Shown: piece by piece, positions 4,823-62,142 of the stretch | Position numbering within the stretch: position 1 is the stretch's first letter | Layout: each line of letters starts with the position of its first letter | DNA from: Alphaproteobacteria bacterium | GTDB lineage: Bacteria > Pseudomonadota > Alphaproteobacteria > JACZXZ01 | NCBI GenBank assembly: GCA_052143835.1 | Contig: JBKQRV010000142.1 | Coordinates: forward strand, 8,995-72,994 | Direction: 5' to 3' | DNA: 64,000 nucleotides | Notes under the pieces: generated by a model | What the model was told of the DNA's origin: nothing | Seen by the model: only the letters and a program-made list of their open reading frames with translations | The model's database searches: none | Made by a program: the position numbers and the translations under genes

Positions 4823-5785
4823 CTATGCCGCCGCGAGCCGGGGAAAGAGCTCGAGCGCATTGCCCCGCTCGATCGCAAGCAGGTCGGCAGCGGCAAGGCC
4901 GAGCGCTTTGAGGCCGCGCACGCTCGCCGTCATCGTCGCCTCGGGTGCGAAGGGATAGTCGCTGCCGAAGAGAACGTTCGCCGCCGGCACCAGCTCGAGA
5001 AGTGCGCGGAAGGCGAAGCGGTTGGCCGAGAGTGCGGTGTCGTAGCGCAGGCGCTTGAGCTCCGCCACCACGCCGTCGGGCACGCTCTTCTTGAATTCCG
5101 GCCTGGCCTCGAGGCGCGCTATGCGCTCGGCGAGGAAGGGCACCGCCCCGCCCGCGTGCGAGAAGATGAAGCGGATGTTGCGGCAGCGCGTGAAGGTGCC
5201 GCCGATGAGGAGGCTCACGATGGCGCGCGTCGTGTCGAAGGGGAACTCGAGCGTCGCGGCCGGGATGGTGTCGAGCGCGAAGCCGCAAAGCGCCGCGGTC
5301 GGATGGAAGTAGACGACGGCCTTGCGGCGATCGAGCTCGTCGAATACGGGCGCGAAGTCCGCCTCGCCCGGGTAGCGGCCGGCATAGTTCGTCATCAGGC
5401 CAATACCGTCCGCCTTGAGCACGTCGAGCGCATAGCCGATCTCGCTGAGACTCGCGTCCACGTCAGGAAGCGGCAGGCTCGCGAACATGCCGAAGCTCAT
5501 GGGACGGTCCCGCCTGAGCTCCGCCGCGTAGTCGTTGCAATGGCGGGCCAGGGCCTGGGTCGCCTTCGCATCGCCGAACCACAGGCCGGGCGTCGAAATG
5601 GAGGTCACCGCGCCCGCGATGCCGTTCCTCGCCATCGCCTCGAGCGAGCGCTCGGGCGACCACTCCGGCGTACGGCCGGAGACCGTGAGCGGGCCGATGC
5701 GCGCCTCTCCCACCGCCGCCACGTACTGCGGCGGCAGGATGTGGTGGTGCACGTCGATCAGGCCAGGCGTCGTCGCTGCGGCCAT
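4823..5785 (-). CDS. amidohydrolase-2 family metal-dependent hydrolase/decarboxylase (ACMSD-like)
   Basis: IDVHHHILP metal-binding motif near the N-terminus and TIM-barrel amidohydrolase_2 features. Start set at the internal Met (MAAATTPGLIDVHHH). Confidence 0.7.
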   Translation of the reverse strand: MAAATTPGLIDVHHHILPPQYVAAVGEARIGPLTVSGRTPEWSPERSLEAMARNGIAGAVTSISTPGLWFGDAKATQALARHCNDYAAELRRDRPMSFGMFASLPLPDVDASLSEIGYALDVLKADGIGLMTNYAGRYPGEADFAPVFDELDRRKAVVYFHPTAALCGFALDTIPAATLEFPFDTTRAIVSLLIGGTFTRCRNIRFIFSHAGGAVPFLAERIARLEARPEFKKSVPDGVVAELKRLRYDTALSANRFAFRALLELVPAANVLFGSDYPFAPEATMTASVRGLKALGLAAADLLAIERGNALELFPRLAAA

Positions 5786-5973
5786 TTCATTCCCTCCCAC
5801 GCACCCTTCGCGAGCCCCCTCGCCGCCCCGGCCCGCGCGCGGCCCTGCCAATCTAGCAGAGCCGCTCGAACGATGTCGATTTGGCGATCACGTTTCCGCC
5901 GGGGCGCGGGCATCGCAGAAGCCCGGCCGATCGATTAGAATGGGCGGAAACGCGCGCAAACGAGGTTCGCATC

Positions 5974-7464
5974 ATGGCTGAATACGACGTGATCGTGGTC
6001 GGCGCCGGCAACGCCGCGATGTGCGCGGCCCTTGCCGCGCGCGAGCAGGGCTGCCGCGTGTTGGCACTCGAGCGGGCACCGCTTGACGAGCGCGGCGGCA
6101 ACTCGACCTTCACGGCCGGCGCCATCCGCGTCGCCTACAACGGGCTCGAGGACCTGCTCGAGCTCATGCCCGACCTCTCCGAGGAGGAGCGGCGCAACAC
6201 CGATTTCGGGACCTACAGCGAGGACCAGTTCTTCGACGACATGGCGCGGATCACCCAGCATCGGGCCAACCCGGACCTCGTCGAGCTCTTGATCCGCCGC
6301 AGCCACCCGACGCTCAAATGGCTGCGCACCAAGGGCGTGCGCTTCGTGCCCATCTACGGCCGGCAGGCCTTCAAGGTCGACGGCAAGTTCAAGTTCTGGG
6401 GCGGGCTCACCGTCGAGACGTGGGGTGGGGGTCCCGGCCTGGTCGACGCGCTCCACAAGGCCGCCCAGGCGAACGGCATCGAGGTGCGCTACGAGAGCCG
6501 CGCGCTCGGCCTGCTCGCCGACGACTCGGGCGTGCGCGGCGTGCGCGTCAAGGCCAAGGGCGTCACCCAGGAGCTCGGCGCCAAAGCCGTGGTGCTCGCC
6601 TGCGGCGGCTTCGAGGCGAACGCCCATTGGCGCACGCGTTATCTCGGCCCCAATTGGGATCTGGCCAAGGTGCGCGGCACGCGCTTCAACACCGGCGACG
6701 GCATCCGCATGGCGCTCGAGGTCGGCGCGCAGTCATGCGGCAACTGGTCGGGCTGCCACGCCGTGGGCTGGGACCGCAACGCGCCCGAGTTCGGCGACCT
6801 CGCCGTCGGCGACGGCTTCCAGAAGCACAGCTATCCCTTCGGCATCATGGTCAACGCGAGGGGCTTGCGCTTCGTCGACGAGGGTGCGGACTTCCGCAAT
6901 TACACCTACGCCAAGTACGGCCGCGTGATCCTCGAGCAGCCCGGCCAGTTCGCCTGGCAGATCTTCGATCAGAAGGTGGTGCACCTGCTGCGCGATGAAT
7001 ATCGCATCCGGCGCGTGACCAAGGCGCAGGCCGACACGCTCGAGGAGCTCGCCGGCAAGCTCGAGGACGTGGACGCGGAGCGCTTCCTCGCGACGGTCAG
7101 CGAATACAATGCCGCCGTCGATCAGACGGTCCCCTTCAATCCGAACGTCAAGGACGGCCGTGCCGCGAAGGGCCTCGCCGTGCCGAAGAGCAACTGGGCG
7201 AACACGATCGAGCGCCCGCCCTTCCTCGCCTTCGCCGTCACCTGCGGCATCACCTTCACCTTCGGCGGCCTGCGCATTACCAACGGCGGCCAAGTGGTCG
7301 ACACGGAGGGGCAGCCGATTCCGGGCCTCTATGCCGCGGGCGAGCTCGTCGGCGACATCTTCTACTTCAACTACCCCGGCGGCACCGGCCTCATGTCGGG
7401 TGCCGTCTTCGGCAAGATCGCCGGCACCTCGGCGGCCGCCGCCGCGAGCGGGGGAAATGACTAA
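5974..7464 (+). CDS. tcuA: FAD-dependent tricarballylate dehydrogenase TcuA-like flavoprotein
   Basis: Starts MAEYDVIVVGAGNAAMCAALAAREQG (FAD Rossmann) and has a GGNS motif. Length about 496 aa, with a GAGG RBS 9 nt upstream; ORF 5881 is an N-terminal extension artefact. Confidence 0.75.
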   Translation: MAEYDVIVVGAGNAAMCAALAAREQGCRVLALERAPLDERGGNSTFTAGAIRVAYNGLEDLLELMPDLSEEERRNTDFGTYSEDQFFDDMARITQHRANPDLVELLIRRSHPTLKWLRTKGVRFVPIYGRQAFKVDGKFKFWGGLTVETWGGGPGLVDALHKAAQANGIEVRYESRALGLLADDSGVRGVRVKAKGVTQELGAKAVVLACGGFEANAHWRTRYLGPNWDLAKVRGTRFNTGDGIRMALEVGAQSCGNWSGCHAVGWDRNAPEFGDLAVGDGFQKHSYPFGIMVNARGLRFVDEGADFRNYTYAKYGRVILEQPGQFAWQIFDQKVVHLLRDEYRIRRVTKAQADTLEELAGKLEDVDAERFLATVSEYNAAVDQTVPFNPNVKDGRAAKGLAVPKSNWANTIERPPFLAFAVTCGITFTFGGLRITNGGQVVDTEGQPIPGLYAAGELVGDIFYFNYPGGTGLMSGAVFGKIAGTSAAAAASGGND

Positions 7465-7467
7465 GTC

Positions 7468-7635
7468 TCAACACGGAGGACACGGAGGACACGGAGGACA
7501 CGGAGAAGAAAGCGAAAGACCTCCAAGGCGGAATGATACGAAGGGGACGAGTACGCATCGCGCATAAGCCTGCCCTGGCGTCATCTTGTTCCCTTTTCCC
7601 ATTTTCCTCCGTGCCCTCCGTGTCCTCCGTGGTGA
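7468..7635. repeat. self-complementary intergenic repeat element (copy 1), terminal inverted arrays of nonamer CACGGAGGA
   Basis: 7472-7505 carries 3.8 tandem copies of CACGGAGGA. 7606-7632 carries 3 copies of the reverse complement TCCTCCGTG. About 100 bp separates the arms. A second copy is at 31975-32177. Confidence 0.7.
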
Positions 7636-7670
7636 ATACTTACCAGCGACGATGGCGCGGGGAGAAAGGC

Positions 7671-29668: not shown

Positions 29669-29698
29669 GAACAAATAAGGAACGAACAAATCGCGAAC
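29669..29698 (+). promoter_or_regulatory. tandem alphaproteobacterial LexA SOS boxes (GAAC-N7-GAAC x2) upstream of imuA
   Basis: GAACaaataagGAAC at 29669-29683 is immediately followed by GAACaaatcgcGAAC at 29684-29698, about 20 bp upstream of the imuA ATG at 29717. Confidence 0.75.
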
Positions 29699-29716: not shown

Positions 29717-30493
29717 ATGAGCTATCGCCACGATCTCGTCTCGGTCGAGGCGCTCAAGAGCCGCATCCTGGCGCTCGAGGGCGCCTGGCAGGGTGTCGGC
29801 CGGCACGAGGAAGCACGGCCCGCAGCCCCGCTTGGGCTCGAGCCGTTGGACCGTGCCTTGCCCTGGGGCGGTCTGCCCACGGCCTGTCTCCACGAGGTCT
29901 CGGCAGGAGCCGCGGCCGATGGTGCCGTTGCCGGCTTCGCTGCCTATCTCCTCGCCCGCTTGAGCGCCGCGGCGGGAAGGCGGCAGTCCGCCGTGCTTTG
30001 GTGTGCCGCGGGCGAGGGGCTTTACGGGCCGGGTCTTGCCGCCTACGGGCTGGATACGCACCGGCTCATCCTCGTGCGCGGACGGCGCCAGGCCGACCTT
30101 CTGTGGGCGCTCGAAGAAGCCTTGCGCTCGGGTGCCCTCGCCGCCGTGCTGGGCGAGATCGAGGAGGCGGACTTGACTGCCACGCGCCGGCTCCAGCTTG
30201 CCGCCGAGGCCGGGCGCACGACGGCCCTCCTGCTCCGTCCTCTGGGCGGCAAGCCCGCCCCCTCGGCCGCCGTCACCGCTTGGCGCATTGCCGCCGCCCC
30301 CTCGGGAGCGGCCCCCTGGGGCGCCGGACTCGGCCGTGAGCGCTGGCGCCTCGAGCTCGTGCGTTGCCGCGGAGGGTTGCCGCGTCAATGGCTTGTGGAG
30401 TGGAACGATGAGGCGAATCGTCTCGCTGTCGCTGCCGAGTTTCGCGACCGATCGGTTGACGCGCCTACCGGCGCTCGCCGCCTGGCGGGCTAA
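29717..30493 (+). CDS. imuA: translesion DNA synthesis-associated protein ImuA (SulA/RecA-like)
   Basis: 258 aa, first gene of the imuA-imuB-dnaE2 cassette, LexA boxes upstream, with a RecA-fold-like core. Confidence 0.8.
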   Translation: MSYRHDLVSVEALKSRILALEGAWQGVGRHEEARPAAPLGLEPLDRALPWGGLPTACLHEVSAGAAADGAVAGFAAYLLARLSAAAGRRQSAVLWCAAGEGLYGPGLAAYGLDTHRLILVRGRRQADLLWALEEALRSGALAAVLGEIEEADLTATRRLQLAAEAGRTTALLLRPLGGKPAPSAAVTAWRIAAAPSGAAPWGAGLGRERWRLELVRCRGGLPRQWLVEWNDEANRLAVAAEFRDRSVDAPTGARRLAG

Positions 30494-31949
30494 GCCCTTC
30501 GCGACCACCGCGAAAGCGGGCGGCCGGCTCGTCATCGTCGCCGCCAATGCGCCGGCCGAGGCCGCCGGCATTGCTCCCGGCCAAGTGCTGGCGGACGCGC
30601 GCGCGCTTGAGCCGGGCTTGCGTGTCGTCGCCGCCGACCCCTCTGCCGACGGCTCTGCCCTTGCAGCCCTTGCCGACGGGTTGACGCGCTACACCCCTTG
30701 GGTGGCCGTCGACGAGCAGGGGGAAGGTGGCGCGCGCGGCGCGCTTCTCGACATCACCGGCTGCGCCCATCTCTTCGGCGGCGAGGCGGCCCTCTTGGCC
30801 GACCTCATAGGCCGGCTCGAGCGCTGCGGCTTCGCCGCGCGTGCGGCAATCGCAGCGAGTGCGGGGGCCGCCTGGGCGGTCGCCCGCTTCGCTCCTCACG
30901 ATCGCCTCATCATCGCGCCCGGCGCCGAGGGCGAAGCGCTCGCGGCTCTCCCCGTTGCCGCCTTGAGGCTGCCGGCCGAGACGGCGGGCAGGCTCGAGCG
31001 CCTCGGGCTGCGCCGCATCGGCGCCCTCTATACGCTGCCGCGGGCACCCCTCGCACGCCGCTTCGGGAGCCTCGTCGGCCGCCGTCTCGACCAAGCGCTC
31101 GGCCGCGTGCAGGAGCCGATCTCGCCGCGCCGGCCGGTCGAGCCCTGGCGCCTCCAGCTCGCCTTTGCCGAGCCGATCGCGCAACGCGAGGATATCGCGG
31201 CCGCCACTGAGCATCTCACGGCCGCGCTCTGCCGCCGCTTGGCCGAGGAGATGAAGGGCGCGCGCCGGCTCGTCCTCGCACTTTACCGGGTCGACGGCAC
31301 CCTCGCGCGCGTCGAGATCGGCACCAGCCGCCCGGTGCGCGAGACCAAGCATCTCATGCGTCTCTTCGCCGAGAAGCTCGACGGCCTCGACGTCGGGCTC
31401 GGCCTCGACCTCGTGGCGCTTTCCGCCCCCGTGGTCGAGCCGCTCGCGGCGTCCCAGAGCGGCCTGCTCGCTGGCGCGAGCGAGGCAGCGCTGCCCGCGC
31501 TCGCTGCCCTTGTCGACCGCCTCGCCAACCGCCTCGGCGCGAGCGAGGTACGCCGGCTGGTCCCCGTCGCGAGCCACCTTCCCGAGCGCGCCCAGCGCGC
31601 GGCCCCGGCACTGGCCTCGGCGGGTGCCGCGGAAGCTCCTTGGCGTAAGCGCCGGCCGCGTCCCTTGCGCCTCTTCACGCGACCCCAGCCGGTCGATGCG
31701 ATCGCCCCCGTGCCCGATGATCCCCCCCTCCTCTTCCGCTGGCGCGCGCAGCTCCACCGCATCCGCCGCGCCGACGGGCCCGAGCGCATCGCCGGCGAGT
31801 GGTGGCAGGGCAACACCCCCGCCCAAGCCGAGGTGCGCGACTATTATAGGGTCGAGGACGAGGCGGGCAGGCGCTTCTGGCTCTATCGCGAGGGCCTCTA
31901 CCACCCCGAGCGCCGCCCGCGCTGGTTCCTCCACGGGCTGTTCGCGTGA
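30408..31949 (+). CDS. imuB: Y-family DNA polymerase-like protein ImuB
   Basis: 513 aa starting MRRIVSLSLPSFATDRL (UmuC-like N-terminus). It overlaps the imuA 3' end in another frame and lies upstream of dnaE2. Confidence 0.8.
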   Translation: MRRIVSLSLPSFATDRLTRLPALAAWRAKPFATTAKAGGRLVIVAANAPAEAAGIAPGQVLADARALEPGLRVVAADPSADGSALAALADGLTRYTPWVAVDEQGEGGARGALLDITGCAHLFGGEAALLADLIGRLERCGFAARAAIAASAGAAWAVARFAPHDRLIIAPGAEGEALAALPVAALRLPAETAGRLERLGLRRIGALYTLPRAPLARRFGSLVGRRLDQALGRVQEPISPRRPVEPWRLQLAFAEPIAQREDIAAATEHLTAALCRRLAEEMKGARRLVLALYRVDGTLARVEIGTSRPVRETKHLMRLFAEKLDGLDVGLGLDLVALSAPVVEPLAASQSGLLAGASEAALPALAALVDRLANRLGASEVRRLVPVASHLPERAQRAAPALASAGAAEAPWRKRRPRPLRLFTRPQPVDAIAPVPDDPPLLFRWRAQLHRIRRADGPERIAGEWWQGNTPAQAEVRDYYRVEDEAGRRFWLYREGLYHPERRPRWFLHGLFA

Positions 31950-31974
31950 GGTGACCGCGCCGTCAAAGTGTTTT

Positions 31975-32177
31975 CACCACGGAGACACGGAGGACACGGA
32001 GGACACGGAGAAGAAGAAAGCAAGATCTAACGCAGAGGTCGCGAAGGATGCGACGCCAGAGGCGTCGCATCAGTGGACGCAGAGGAATAATTTTTCTCCG
32101 CGTCCTCTGCGCATCCTCCGCGTCCTCTGCGCTGAACAATGCCTTCTCTTCTCCGTGTCTTCCGTGTCTCCGTGGTG
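31975..32177. repeat. self-complementary intergenic repeat element (copy 2) between imuB and dnaE2
   Basis: Near-perfect terminal inverted repeats: CACCACGGAGACACGGAGGACACGGAG (31975-32010) and CTCCGTGTCTTCCGTGTCTCCGTGGTG (32151-32177). Internal features are CGCAGAGG/CCTCTGCG inverted pairs and a 17-mer direct repeat CTCCGCGTCCTCTGCGC x2. Confidence 0.7.
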
Positions 32178-32202
32178 CATCTGTCGTGCACTGGGATTAC
32201 CC

Positions 32203-35487
<3,285 letters not shown>

Positions 35488-61047: not shown

Positions 61048-61123
61048 TTGGCGCGCCCTGGAGGATTCGAACCTCCGACCCACAGCTTAGAAGGCTGTTG
61101 CTCTATCCTCTGAGCTAAGGGCG
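61048..61123 (-). tRNA. tRNA-Arg (anticodon TCT)
   Basis: Hand-folded cloverleaf: acceptor GCGCCCT/AGGGCGC, D-stem GCTC/GAGC, anticodon stem ACAGC/GCTGT with loop CTTCTAA, T-arm GGAGG-TTCGAAT-CCTCC, encoded CCA. Confidence 0.85.
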
Positions 61124-61161
61124 CGCTCTCGCGAGGCATCCCGGGCCGCGCGGCGCGGTCC

Positions 61162-62065: not shown

Positions 62066-62142
62066 TGGTCGGGGCGAGAGGATTCGAACCTCCGGCCTCC
62101 TGCTCCCAAAGCAGGCGCTCTACCAGGCTGAGCTACGCCCCG
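62066..62142 (-). tRNA. tRNA-Pro (anticodon TGG)
   Basis: Hand-folded: acceptor CGGGGCG/CGCCCCG, D-arm GCTC-AGCCTGGTA-GAGC, anticodon stem CCTGC/GCAGG with loop TTTGGGA, T-arm GGAGG-TTCGAAT-CCTCT, discriminator A, encoded CCA. Confidence 0.85.

Follow-up and report, generated by a model that had tools for sequence, protein, structure and literature searches.

A nested palindromic element between imuB and dnaE2 of an alphaproteobacterium and its relation to a cross-phylum family of heptamer-array hairpins associated with GxxExxY genes

Among the described systems that come closest to the element reported here, the hairpins of Correia elements bind RNase III and are either cleaved or protected by it, which alters the fate of the mRNA (PMC2649163). 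A second case is the intervening sequence (IVS) in the 23S rRNA of Coxiella burnetii, which is excised by RNase III and is seen as selfish, its mobility being unexplained; directly upstream of the start of its decaying open reading frame there are tandem heptamers that vary between strains (PMC4990558).

The element that concerns us here lies between imuB and dnaE2 in the window, i.e. the whole stretch of 64,000 nt of alphaproteobacterial DNA that was analysed. The host operon matches the imuA-imuB-dnaE2 SOS mutagenesis cassette in its protein families, the order of its genes and its LexA boxes, the difference being that its imuB-dnaE2 junction is interrupted by the element. An earlier note on this DNA had proposed that an element of a repeat family splits the junction, and this is borne out. 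The element is a cargo-less, two-layer member of the family described below, and we consider it likely that it is selfish, co-transcribed DNA rather than an evolved regulator.

The genes of the operon were recognised from NCBIfam matches and from their collinearity in relatives. The imuA gene (29717-30493, + strand; NF033429 ImuA, E = 5e-26) has the same length and position as in the relative L121, the start of imuB (30408-31949, + strand; Y-family polymerase-like) was set by collinearity with P0001 (513 aa, 95% identical), and dnaE2 (32203-35487, + strand; error-prone DNA polymerase) matches NCBIfam NF004225 with 1481 bits, aligned from residue 2. Two tandem GTTC-N7-GTTC motifs (29669-29698, strand -), the sole two in the 64-kb window, precede the ATG of imuA by 19 nt. 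GTTC-N7-GTTC is the SOS (LexA) box of Alphaproteobacteria, and SOS regulation of the operon, as previously suggested, is plausible with two such boxes just upstream of imuA. A scan of the imuB-dnaE2 spacer found no U-tract and no promoter-like or terminator-like site. The element therefore probably forms part of the LexA-controlled imuA-imuB-dnaE2 transcript, and for the same reason dnaE2 probably relies on read-through from the imuA promoter. Elsewhere in the window there are two tRNA genes on the minus strand (61052-61124 and 62069-62142; Rfam 72 and 70 bits, respectively).

A palindrome of a different sort was detected inside dnaE2 (34614-34713). It is G/C-rich, about 100 nt long and of the CCCTCCCCCCTCAAGGGGGAGGG... 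type, its arms of 38-41 nt are 78-84% complementary, and its in-frame reading is ...PPPQPSPLKGEGEVSEHADAPPPPLRGRVREGG.... A diverged form is present in DnaE2 of the relative L122, and the palindrome is absent from DnaE2 of L123. With it the operon has palindromic repeats of two kinds, this one being inserted in frame in a coding region.

The gene limits reported earlier (imuB end at 31949, dnaE2 start at 32203) are correct; they enclose 253 nt and not 254 bp, and the gap is not taken up entirely by the element. The composite palindromic element (31973-32179; like its parts, not assigned to a strand) occupies 207 of the 253 nt and is separated from the stop codon of imuB and from the ATG of dnaE2 by 23 nt of native spacer each. 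It consists of an outer CACGGAG-type module and an inner module in the loop of the former. The left arm of the outer module (31978-32010) contains four CACGGAG heptamers with spacers of 1-2 nt, the right arm (32151-32174) contains CTCCGTG-type units, and between the arms there is a purine-rich/pyrimidine-rich inner stem. The termini of the outer module are TTCAC (31973-31977) and GTGCA (32175-32179); the former fits the terminal consensus of the family while the latter agrees with GT[GT]AA at 4 of 5 positions. The interior is a nested hairpin of 111 nt (32026-32136) with termini of its own, TCTAA ... CTGAA, and with arrays of CGCAGAG/CGCGAAG units on the left and CTCCGCG/CTCTGCG units on the right. 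Over 53 nt the inner right arm shows 83% identity to that of an unrelated GxxExxY cassette, L149. Neither a GxxExxY gene nor a coding remnant of one was found between the arms of the window element, and no direct repeat flanks it.

Several details described from the sequence before are confirmed, i.e. the 27-nt terminal inverted repeats (31975-32001 and 32151-32177, 26/27 complementary), the internal CGCAGAGG/CCTCTGCG inverted pairs, and the duplicated 17-mer CTCCGCGTCCTCTGCGC at 32096-32112 and 32116-32132. The 11-bp perfect hairpin exists as well (arms 32047-32057 and 32061-32071), its loop being AGA, 3 nt, instead of "agag". Both the nested build from two modules and the membership in a gene-carrying, cross-phylum family had been missed. 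A small hairpin, GTGCA-TCTGTCG-TGCAC (32175-32191), is found directly 3' of the element, with 11 nt left to the ATG of dnaE2; it overlaps the right terminus of the element and is kept in L121.

The palindrome is highly structured. The 253-nt spacer has a predicted folding energy of -146.5 kcal/mol, as compared to -86.6 +/- 5.4 kcal/mol for shuffled sequences (z = -11.2), and folded singly the outer and inner modules reach -66.3 and -67.3 kcal/mol, respectively; the long stem-loop is thus predicted to be very stable. In Rfam, at gathering and permissive thresholds, nothing was obtained beyond sub-threshold hits to generic models of long hairpins (microRNA precursors). One might consider a chance palindrome, a simple expansion of tandem repeats or an assembly artefact, given that the arms consist of short units in tandem that differ in number from one relative to the next, and that many of the matches reported below come from metagenome-assembled genomes (MAGs). 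The 24-mer of the outer arm, however, has no match when the window is shuffled 100 times, independent assemblies have the same sites occupied, the element type is present in finished isolate genomes (on a plasmid of Gemmatirosa and on the chromosome of Methanocella), and the termini are sharp and conserved. On these grounds we consider such an origin ruled out for practical purposes. The variation in heptamer number between relatives does show that slippage occurs.

A very stable hairpin inside an operon would also be expected of a selected cis-regulatory RNA that attenuates the transcript, or controls its processing or translation, and so sets the amount of DnaE2 relative to ImuA and ImuB. 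The precedent of Correia elements, which change mRNA fate through RNase III (PMC2649163), points in the same direction. Two properties of the spacer argue against it. Firstly, as mentioned above, there is no U-tract or terminator-like site, and the sequence directly after the stem is GCATCTGTCG, which does not have the form of an intrinsic terminator or attenuator. Secondly, the antisense strand of the element folds better than the sense strand (-141.3 vs -133.9 kcal/mol).

The comparison of relatives shows how variable this junction is. In L121 (ImuB 95% identical) the flanks are identical and the same arms are present, and the interior is replaced by another type of palindrome, giving a spacer of 195 nt. 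In L124 and L125 (ImuB 81%) only the left arm is found, together with a palindrome of the L121 type in the opposite orientation, and the ATG of dnaE2 follows 9 nt past the palindrome. Two further relatives, L122 (ImuB 77%; 5505-6154) and L123 (72%; 5577-6274), carry a gene pair encoding a FitA-like RHH protein and a PIN-domain protein (vapBC-like) between imuB and dnaE2, and the end of this toxin-antitoxin pair overlaps the dnaE2 start. In P0011 (ImuB 71%) imuB and dnaE2 overlap by 4 nt, and in a relative at 62% dnaE2 is not adjacent to imuB. The two genes are therefore contiguous in some relatives, as had been assumed to be the rule. The number of heptamer units at the junction differs between relatives (2 vs 4). 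Among the relatives compared there is no clean pair of an occupied and an empty site with identical flanks. From these alignments the imuB-dnaE2 junction turns out to be an apparent recurrent landing site, either for a palindromic element or for a toxin-antitoxin pair. An ancestor evidently gained the outer CACGGAG module in the spacer, and its loop has since then been taken by different palindromic modules in different lineages. With respect to a regulatory role, the fact that an element of the family is kept at the junction down to 81% ImuB identity speaks for it, but the interior is already replaced at 95%, the right arm and hence the long stem are lost at 81%, and other relatives have a gene overlap or a toxin-antitoxin pair at this position.

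The palindrome that fills the loop in the relatives, tcgtcattgcgag...gaagcaatcc and its complement, is located at 5585-5690 in L121, 3165-3250 in L124 and 2451-2536 in L125. As a loop filler of the imuB-dnaE2 element the tcgtcattgcgag-type palindrome has opposite orientations in the lineages at 95% and 81% ImuB identity. It may represent a widespread repeat family in its own right; a full-text literature search for the "cattgcgag" palindrome returned only unrelated primers.

The element had been described as a second copy of a repeat, the other one being at 7467-7636 (strand not assigned) between a tcuA-like and a HIBADH-like gene. This is correct for the terminal arrays, since the two share arms and termini, but their interiors are unrelated; no further copies were found in the 64-kb window. 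The site of this other copy is occupied in all relatives compared (L099 and L219-L222), so that an empty site is not seen, and an ortholog exists on a contig of a close relative, MAG SMAG_U11370. The relatives differ in having 3 or 4 heptamer units. The most distant one, L222 (HIBADH 71%; 2309-2500), has kept the CACGGAG arms and the TTCAC/GTGAA termini, and its loop contains a different nested hairpin with a CACAAAG-type array. The arms at this site are about 90-94% identical, as opposed to 64% for the adjoining 3' spacer; in the same genomes the flanking genes are 79-87% identical at the DNA level. Judged from these identities, the conservation of the arms could reflect selection at the level of the host instead of selfish persistence, and conservation beyond that of the adjoining spacer is a further point in favour of a cis-regulatory RNA.

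The distribution of the arms extends far beyond these relatives. An exact 25-mer of the arm occurs at 120 or more loci in a collection with one genome per species, and about 81 elements with an inverted partner within 800 nt were recognised among the matches listed. The unpaired 25-mer matches include coding repeats of actinomycetes, which are chance matches. Paired elements are present in Burkholderiales (at least 11 contigs of one MAG), Planctomycetota, Acidobacteriota, Gemmatimonadota, Verrucomicrobiota, Bacteroidota, a cyanobacterium, Rhodospirillales, Treponema primitia and the archaeon Methanocella sp. MCL-LM. In one MAG at least 11 loci share a 130-nt interior with 70-89% identity, an example of the dispersed subfamilies that the short elements form. 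The ends are well defined: across 144 elements the pentamer TT[AC]AC is found at both ends, with A at position -2 in 135 and C at position -1 in 124, and the conservation stops at position -6. Target-site duplications were not detected in the family as a whole, the rates being those of shuffled controls (offsets 0-8, lengths 2-5).

One match was found in a collection of plasmids. In plasmid 1 of Gemmatirosa kalamazoonensis KBS708 (about 381.5 kb; L218, 650-835) a hairpin with four CACGGAGGA units lies inside CGCAGAGG-type arms, so that nesting exists in both orders, CGCAGAG inside CACGGAG in the window and CACGGAG inside CGCAGAG in Gemmatirosa kalamazoonensis. Nesting in both orders, taken with the swapped interiors, suggests that the loops are hot spots for modules or, alternatively, that gene conversion takes place via common arms. 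Viral contigs gave 11 matches, none with an inverted partner nearby and several in tandem repeats of coding type. On the viral contigs L127 (177-226), L132 and L134, arrays of a different 10-mer (GGGACTAAAC / GGGCACTAAC) stand before single CACGGAG arms; a small reverse-strand open reading frame with no family assigned follows the arm, and no partner arm is nearby.

The placement of the elements is mostly intergenic, and the gaps to the flanking genes are mostly below 80 nt. For the classified elements among the matches listed, the flanking genes are co-directional in 34 cases, convergent in 12 and divergent in 8, proportions that we judge to be close to the ordinary intergenic expectation. 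The same element type is thus found between unrelated genes of every orientation class, which does not favour a cis-regulatory RNA. Selection on RNA should also leave a trace in the mismatches. Mismatches compatible with G.U pairing are not more frequent on the sense strand (66 sense vs 75 antisense, p = 0.5), and folding energy shows no strand bias either (11 vs 10), in a sample of 21 elements only; the lack of strand bias in the mismatches means that selection at the RNA level is not indicated. Weighing these points against the conserved arms and the stable stem, we regard a selected cis-regulatory RNA as quite improbable. The narrower proposal of the earlier note, a dedicated attenuator or modulator of dnaE2, is unsupported given the missing U-tract, the strand symmetry, the replaced interior and the loss of an arm in relatives.

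The lengths of the interiors in the family are bimodal, either below 250 nt or 350-600 nt, and the longer class contains the gene of a GxxExxY protein (TIGR04256, E = 1e-32; Pfam PDDEXK_3, PF13366, E = 3e-43), a PD-(D/E)XK protein of 125 aa. Full-length members are about 450 nt long with one GxxExxY gene, while short members of 60-250 nt contain a loop or a nested hairpin. Several of the cargo genes are pseudogenes with stops or frameshifts; coding remnants of GxxExxY were not detected in the short elements (E >= 1.6), and there is no GxxExxY gene in the 64-kb window.

The association also holds when one starts from the protein. From an unbiased sample of 80 GxxExxY loci in metagenomes, picked by protein similarity alone, 71 had enough flanking sequence, and 57 of these were bracketed by heptamer arrays (inverted repeats scoring 30 or more), as opposed to none of 177 control intervals shifted by 700 or 1100 nt. 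The arms have the form (T)TCAC-CRCRGAG x3 ... x3-GTGA(A), i.e. the architecture and termini of the window element. The bracketing of 57/71 genes vs 0/177 controls leads us to regard the window element as a cargo-less derivative with a role like that of a MITE. In all loci analysed there were 30 bracketed open reading frames of 80-220 aa, 25 of which were GxxExxY and 5 spurious, so none of the 30 was a cargo gene of another kind. The type of arm tracks the similarity of the cargo, the nearest neighbour being of the same arm type 29 times out of 59, with 11 expected. An identical GxxExxY protein on 24 contigs was considered as a possible set of multi-locus copies and rejected, since all are the same locus in different samples. 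This locus (L223, 1459-1945) is an intact GxxExxY cassette with CAGTGAG-type arms, 3 nt after a thiolase stop codon and just before a FadB-like gene, an in-operon placement like that of the window element.

The GxxExxY family itself is very large, as nearly all of 8000 scored database clusters match. According to a published survey it is horizontally mixed between Bacteria and Archaea (PMC3424549). A full-text search for the names GxxExxY and PDDEXK_3 returned incidental mentions only, and a search by sequence gave no solved structures. The AlphaFold model (pLDDT 88) confirms the predicted PD-(D/E)XK fold, apparently one with no close structural relative, the Foldseek matches in the PDB being weak (E >= 0.014, TM about 0.5) and limited to Cas4 SSO0001 and lambda-type exonucleases.

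A third possibility is that the element acts as a site at the DNA level, where the arrays bind a protein of the host or of the element, or where a cruciform serves recombination, replication pausing or nucleoid organisation. The symmetry of the structure with respect to the strands would fit, as would the strong conservation of heptamers and termini across phyla next to variable interiors, the persistence of the arms at an orthologous site over deep divergence, and the correlation between arm type and the similarity of the cargo protein (29/59 vs 11 expected). There is, however, no known binding protein, the conservation of the arms is equally expected for ends recognised by a mobility enzyme, and the copy number and positions resemble those of dispersed selfish repeats. 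We therefore rate a DNA-level site as improbable.

We return to the reading that we prefer, in which the element is mobile or formerly mobile selfish DNA that would be carried passively on the SOS transcript. Within the transcript it should fold as an imperfect hairpin about 78 bp long, and such an insertion would remove the translational coupling between imuB and dnaE2 that is seen in a relative. The stem is a likely substrate of RNase III, and cleavage would split the fate of the dnaE2 mRNA from that of imuAB. That RNase III probably attacks the stem is suggested by the precedents in Correia elements and in the Coxiella IVS (PMC2649163, PMC4990558). As to how the element moves, our best guess, which we hold weakly, is a structure-dependent process at hairpin or cruciform ends that makes no target duplication and in which GxxExxY acts in trans.

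It is tempting to go one step further. As a tentative proposal, possible though in our view somewhat short of probable, the array hairpins and GxxExxY may together represent an undescribed class of mobile elements that crosses phyla and domains. Here a minimal PD-(D/E)XK nuclease would mobilise structured ends, making no target duplication, with a preference for operon spacers and hairpin loops that leads to "Russian-doll" palindromes. Such a class would correspond, in mRNA spacers, to the 23S IVS, and the imuB-dnaE2 element would be a non-autonomous copy. For the operon the consequence is modest, i.e. selfish DNA would have broken the imuB-dnaE2 coupling of the SOS mutagenesis cassette. In a wider context, the very abundant "hypothetical" GxxExxY proteins have their genes consistently enclosed by conserved heptamer-array hairpins, and many phyla of soil and water bacteria have gene-less copies of these hairpins scattered through their operons. 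This provides a testable hypothesis for the role of GxxExxY, for the origin of many long intergenic hairpins, and possibly for the rise of 23S intervening sequences. Cultured hosts with finished genomes are available, among them Gemmatirosa kalamazoonensis and Methanocella sp. MCL-LM.

It remains to compare the family with the known classes of small palindromic elements. We found no paper with the arm sequences in a full-text search that covered the open literature, subscription-only papers being outside its scope; the family is apparently undescribed, no published name was found, and a prior description is possible in the subscription-only literature. Inverted arrays of at least 2-3 C[AG]C[AG]GAG heptamers, set 1-2 nt apart, define the array hairpins, and by this definition the window element belongs to them. 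It has the terminal inverted repeats, the small size and the multiple copies of a classical MITE, but it lacks a target-site duplication and a transposase-encoding parent with the same ends.

The Correia elements (CREE) of Neisseria, the ERIC sequences of enterobacteria and the BOX and RUP elements of pneumococci, all MITE-like palindromes that are co-transcribed, are similar in being small, in having terminal inverted repeats, in occurring as dispersed intergenic copies, often inside operons, and in forming long RNA hairpins. The differences are as follows. Firstly, the present family has no target-site duplication, and its arms are built of 7-mers that lie 1-2 nt apart. Secondly, it spans many phyla and an archaeon, not one genus. 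Thirdly, its gene-bearing partner encodes a 125-aa PD-(D/E)XK protein and no known transposase. Finally, there is no sequence similarity between these elements and the family.

REP, BIME and REPIN sequences with their IS200/IS605-like RAYT are likewise intergenic palindromes with no target duplication and presumed movement via hairpins, and there, too, non-autonomous copies far outnumber the gene. REP units, however, are 20-40 nt long, headed by GTAG and lineage-specific, whereas the family has heptamer arrays and TT[AC]AC termini, as does the window element, which does not begin with GTAG. The enzymes differ as well, RAYT being an HUH enzyme and the gene of the family encoding a PD-(D/E)XK protein.

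The 23S rRNA IVS with its S23p (four-helix-bundle) open reading frame resembles the full-length members in its size of about 430-450 nt, in the long stem formed by inverted ends, in the heptamers and in the decaying reading frame. The host site is different, since the window element lies in an mRNA spacer between two protein-coding genes and not in helix 9, 25 or 45 of 23S rRNA, and the cargo of the family is GxxExxY as opposed to S23p. The heptamers are also distinct, CACGGAG in the element and GACAGAT in the Coxiella IVS.
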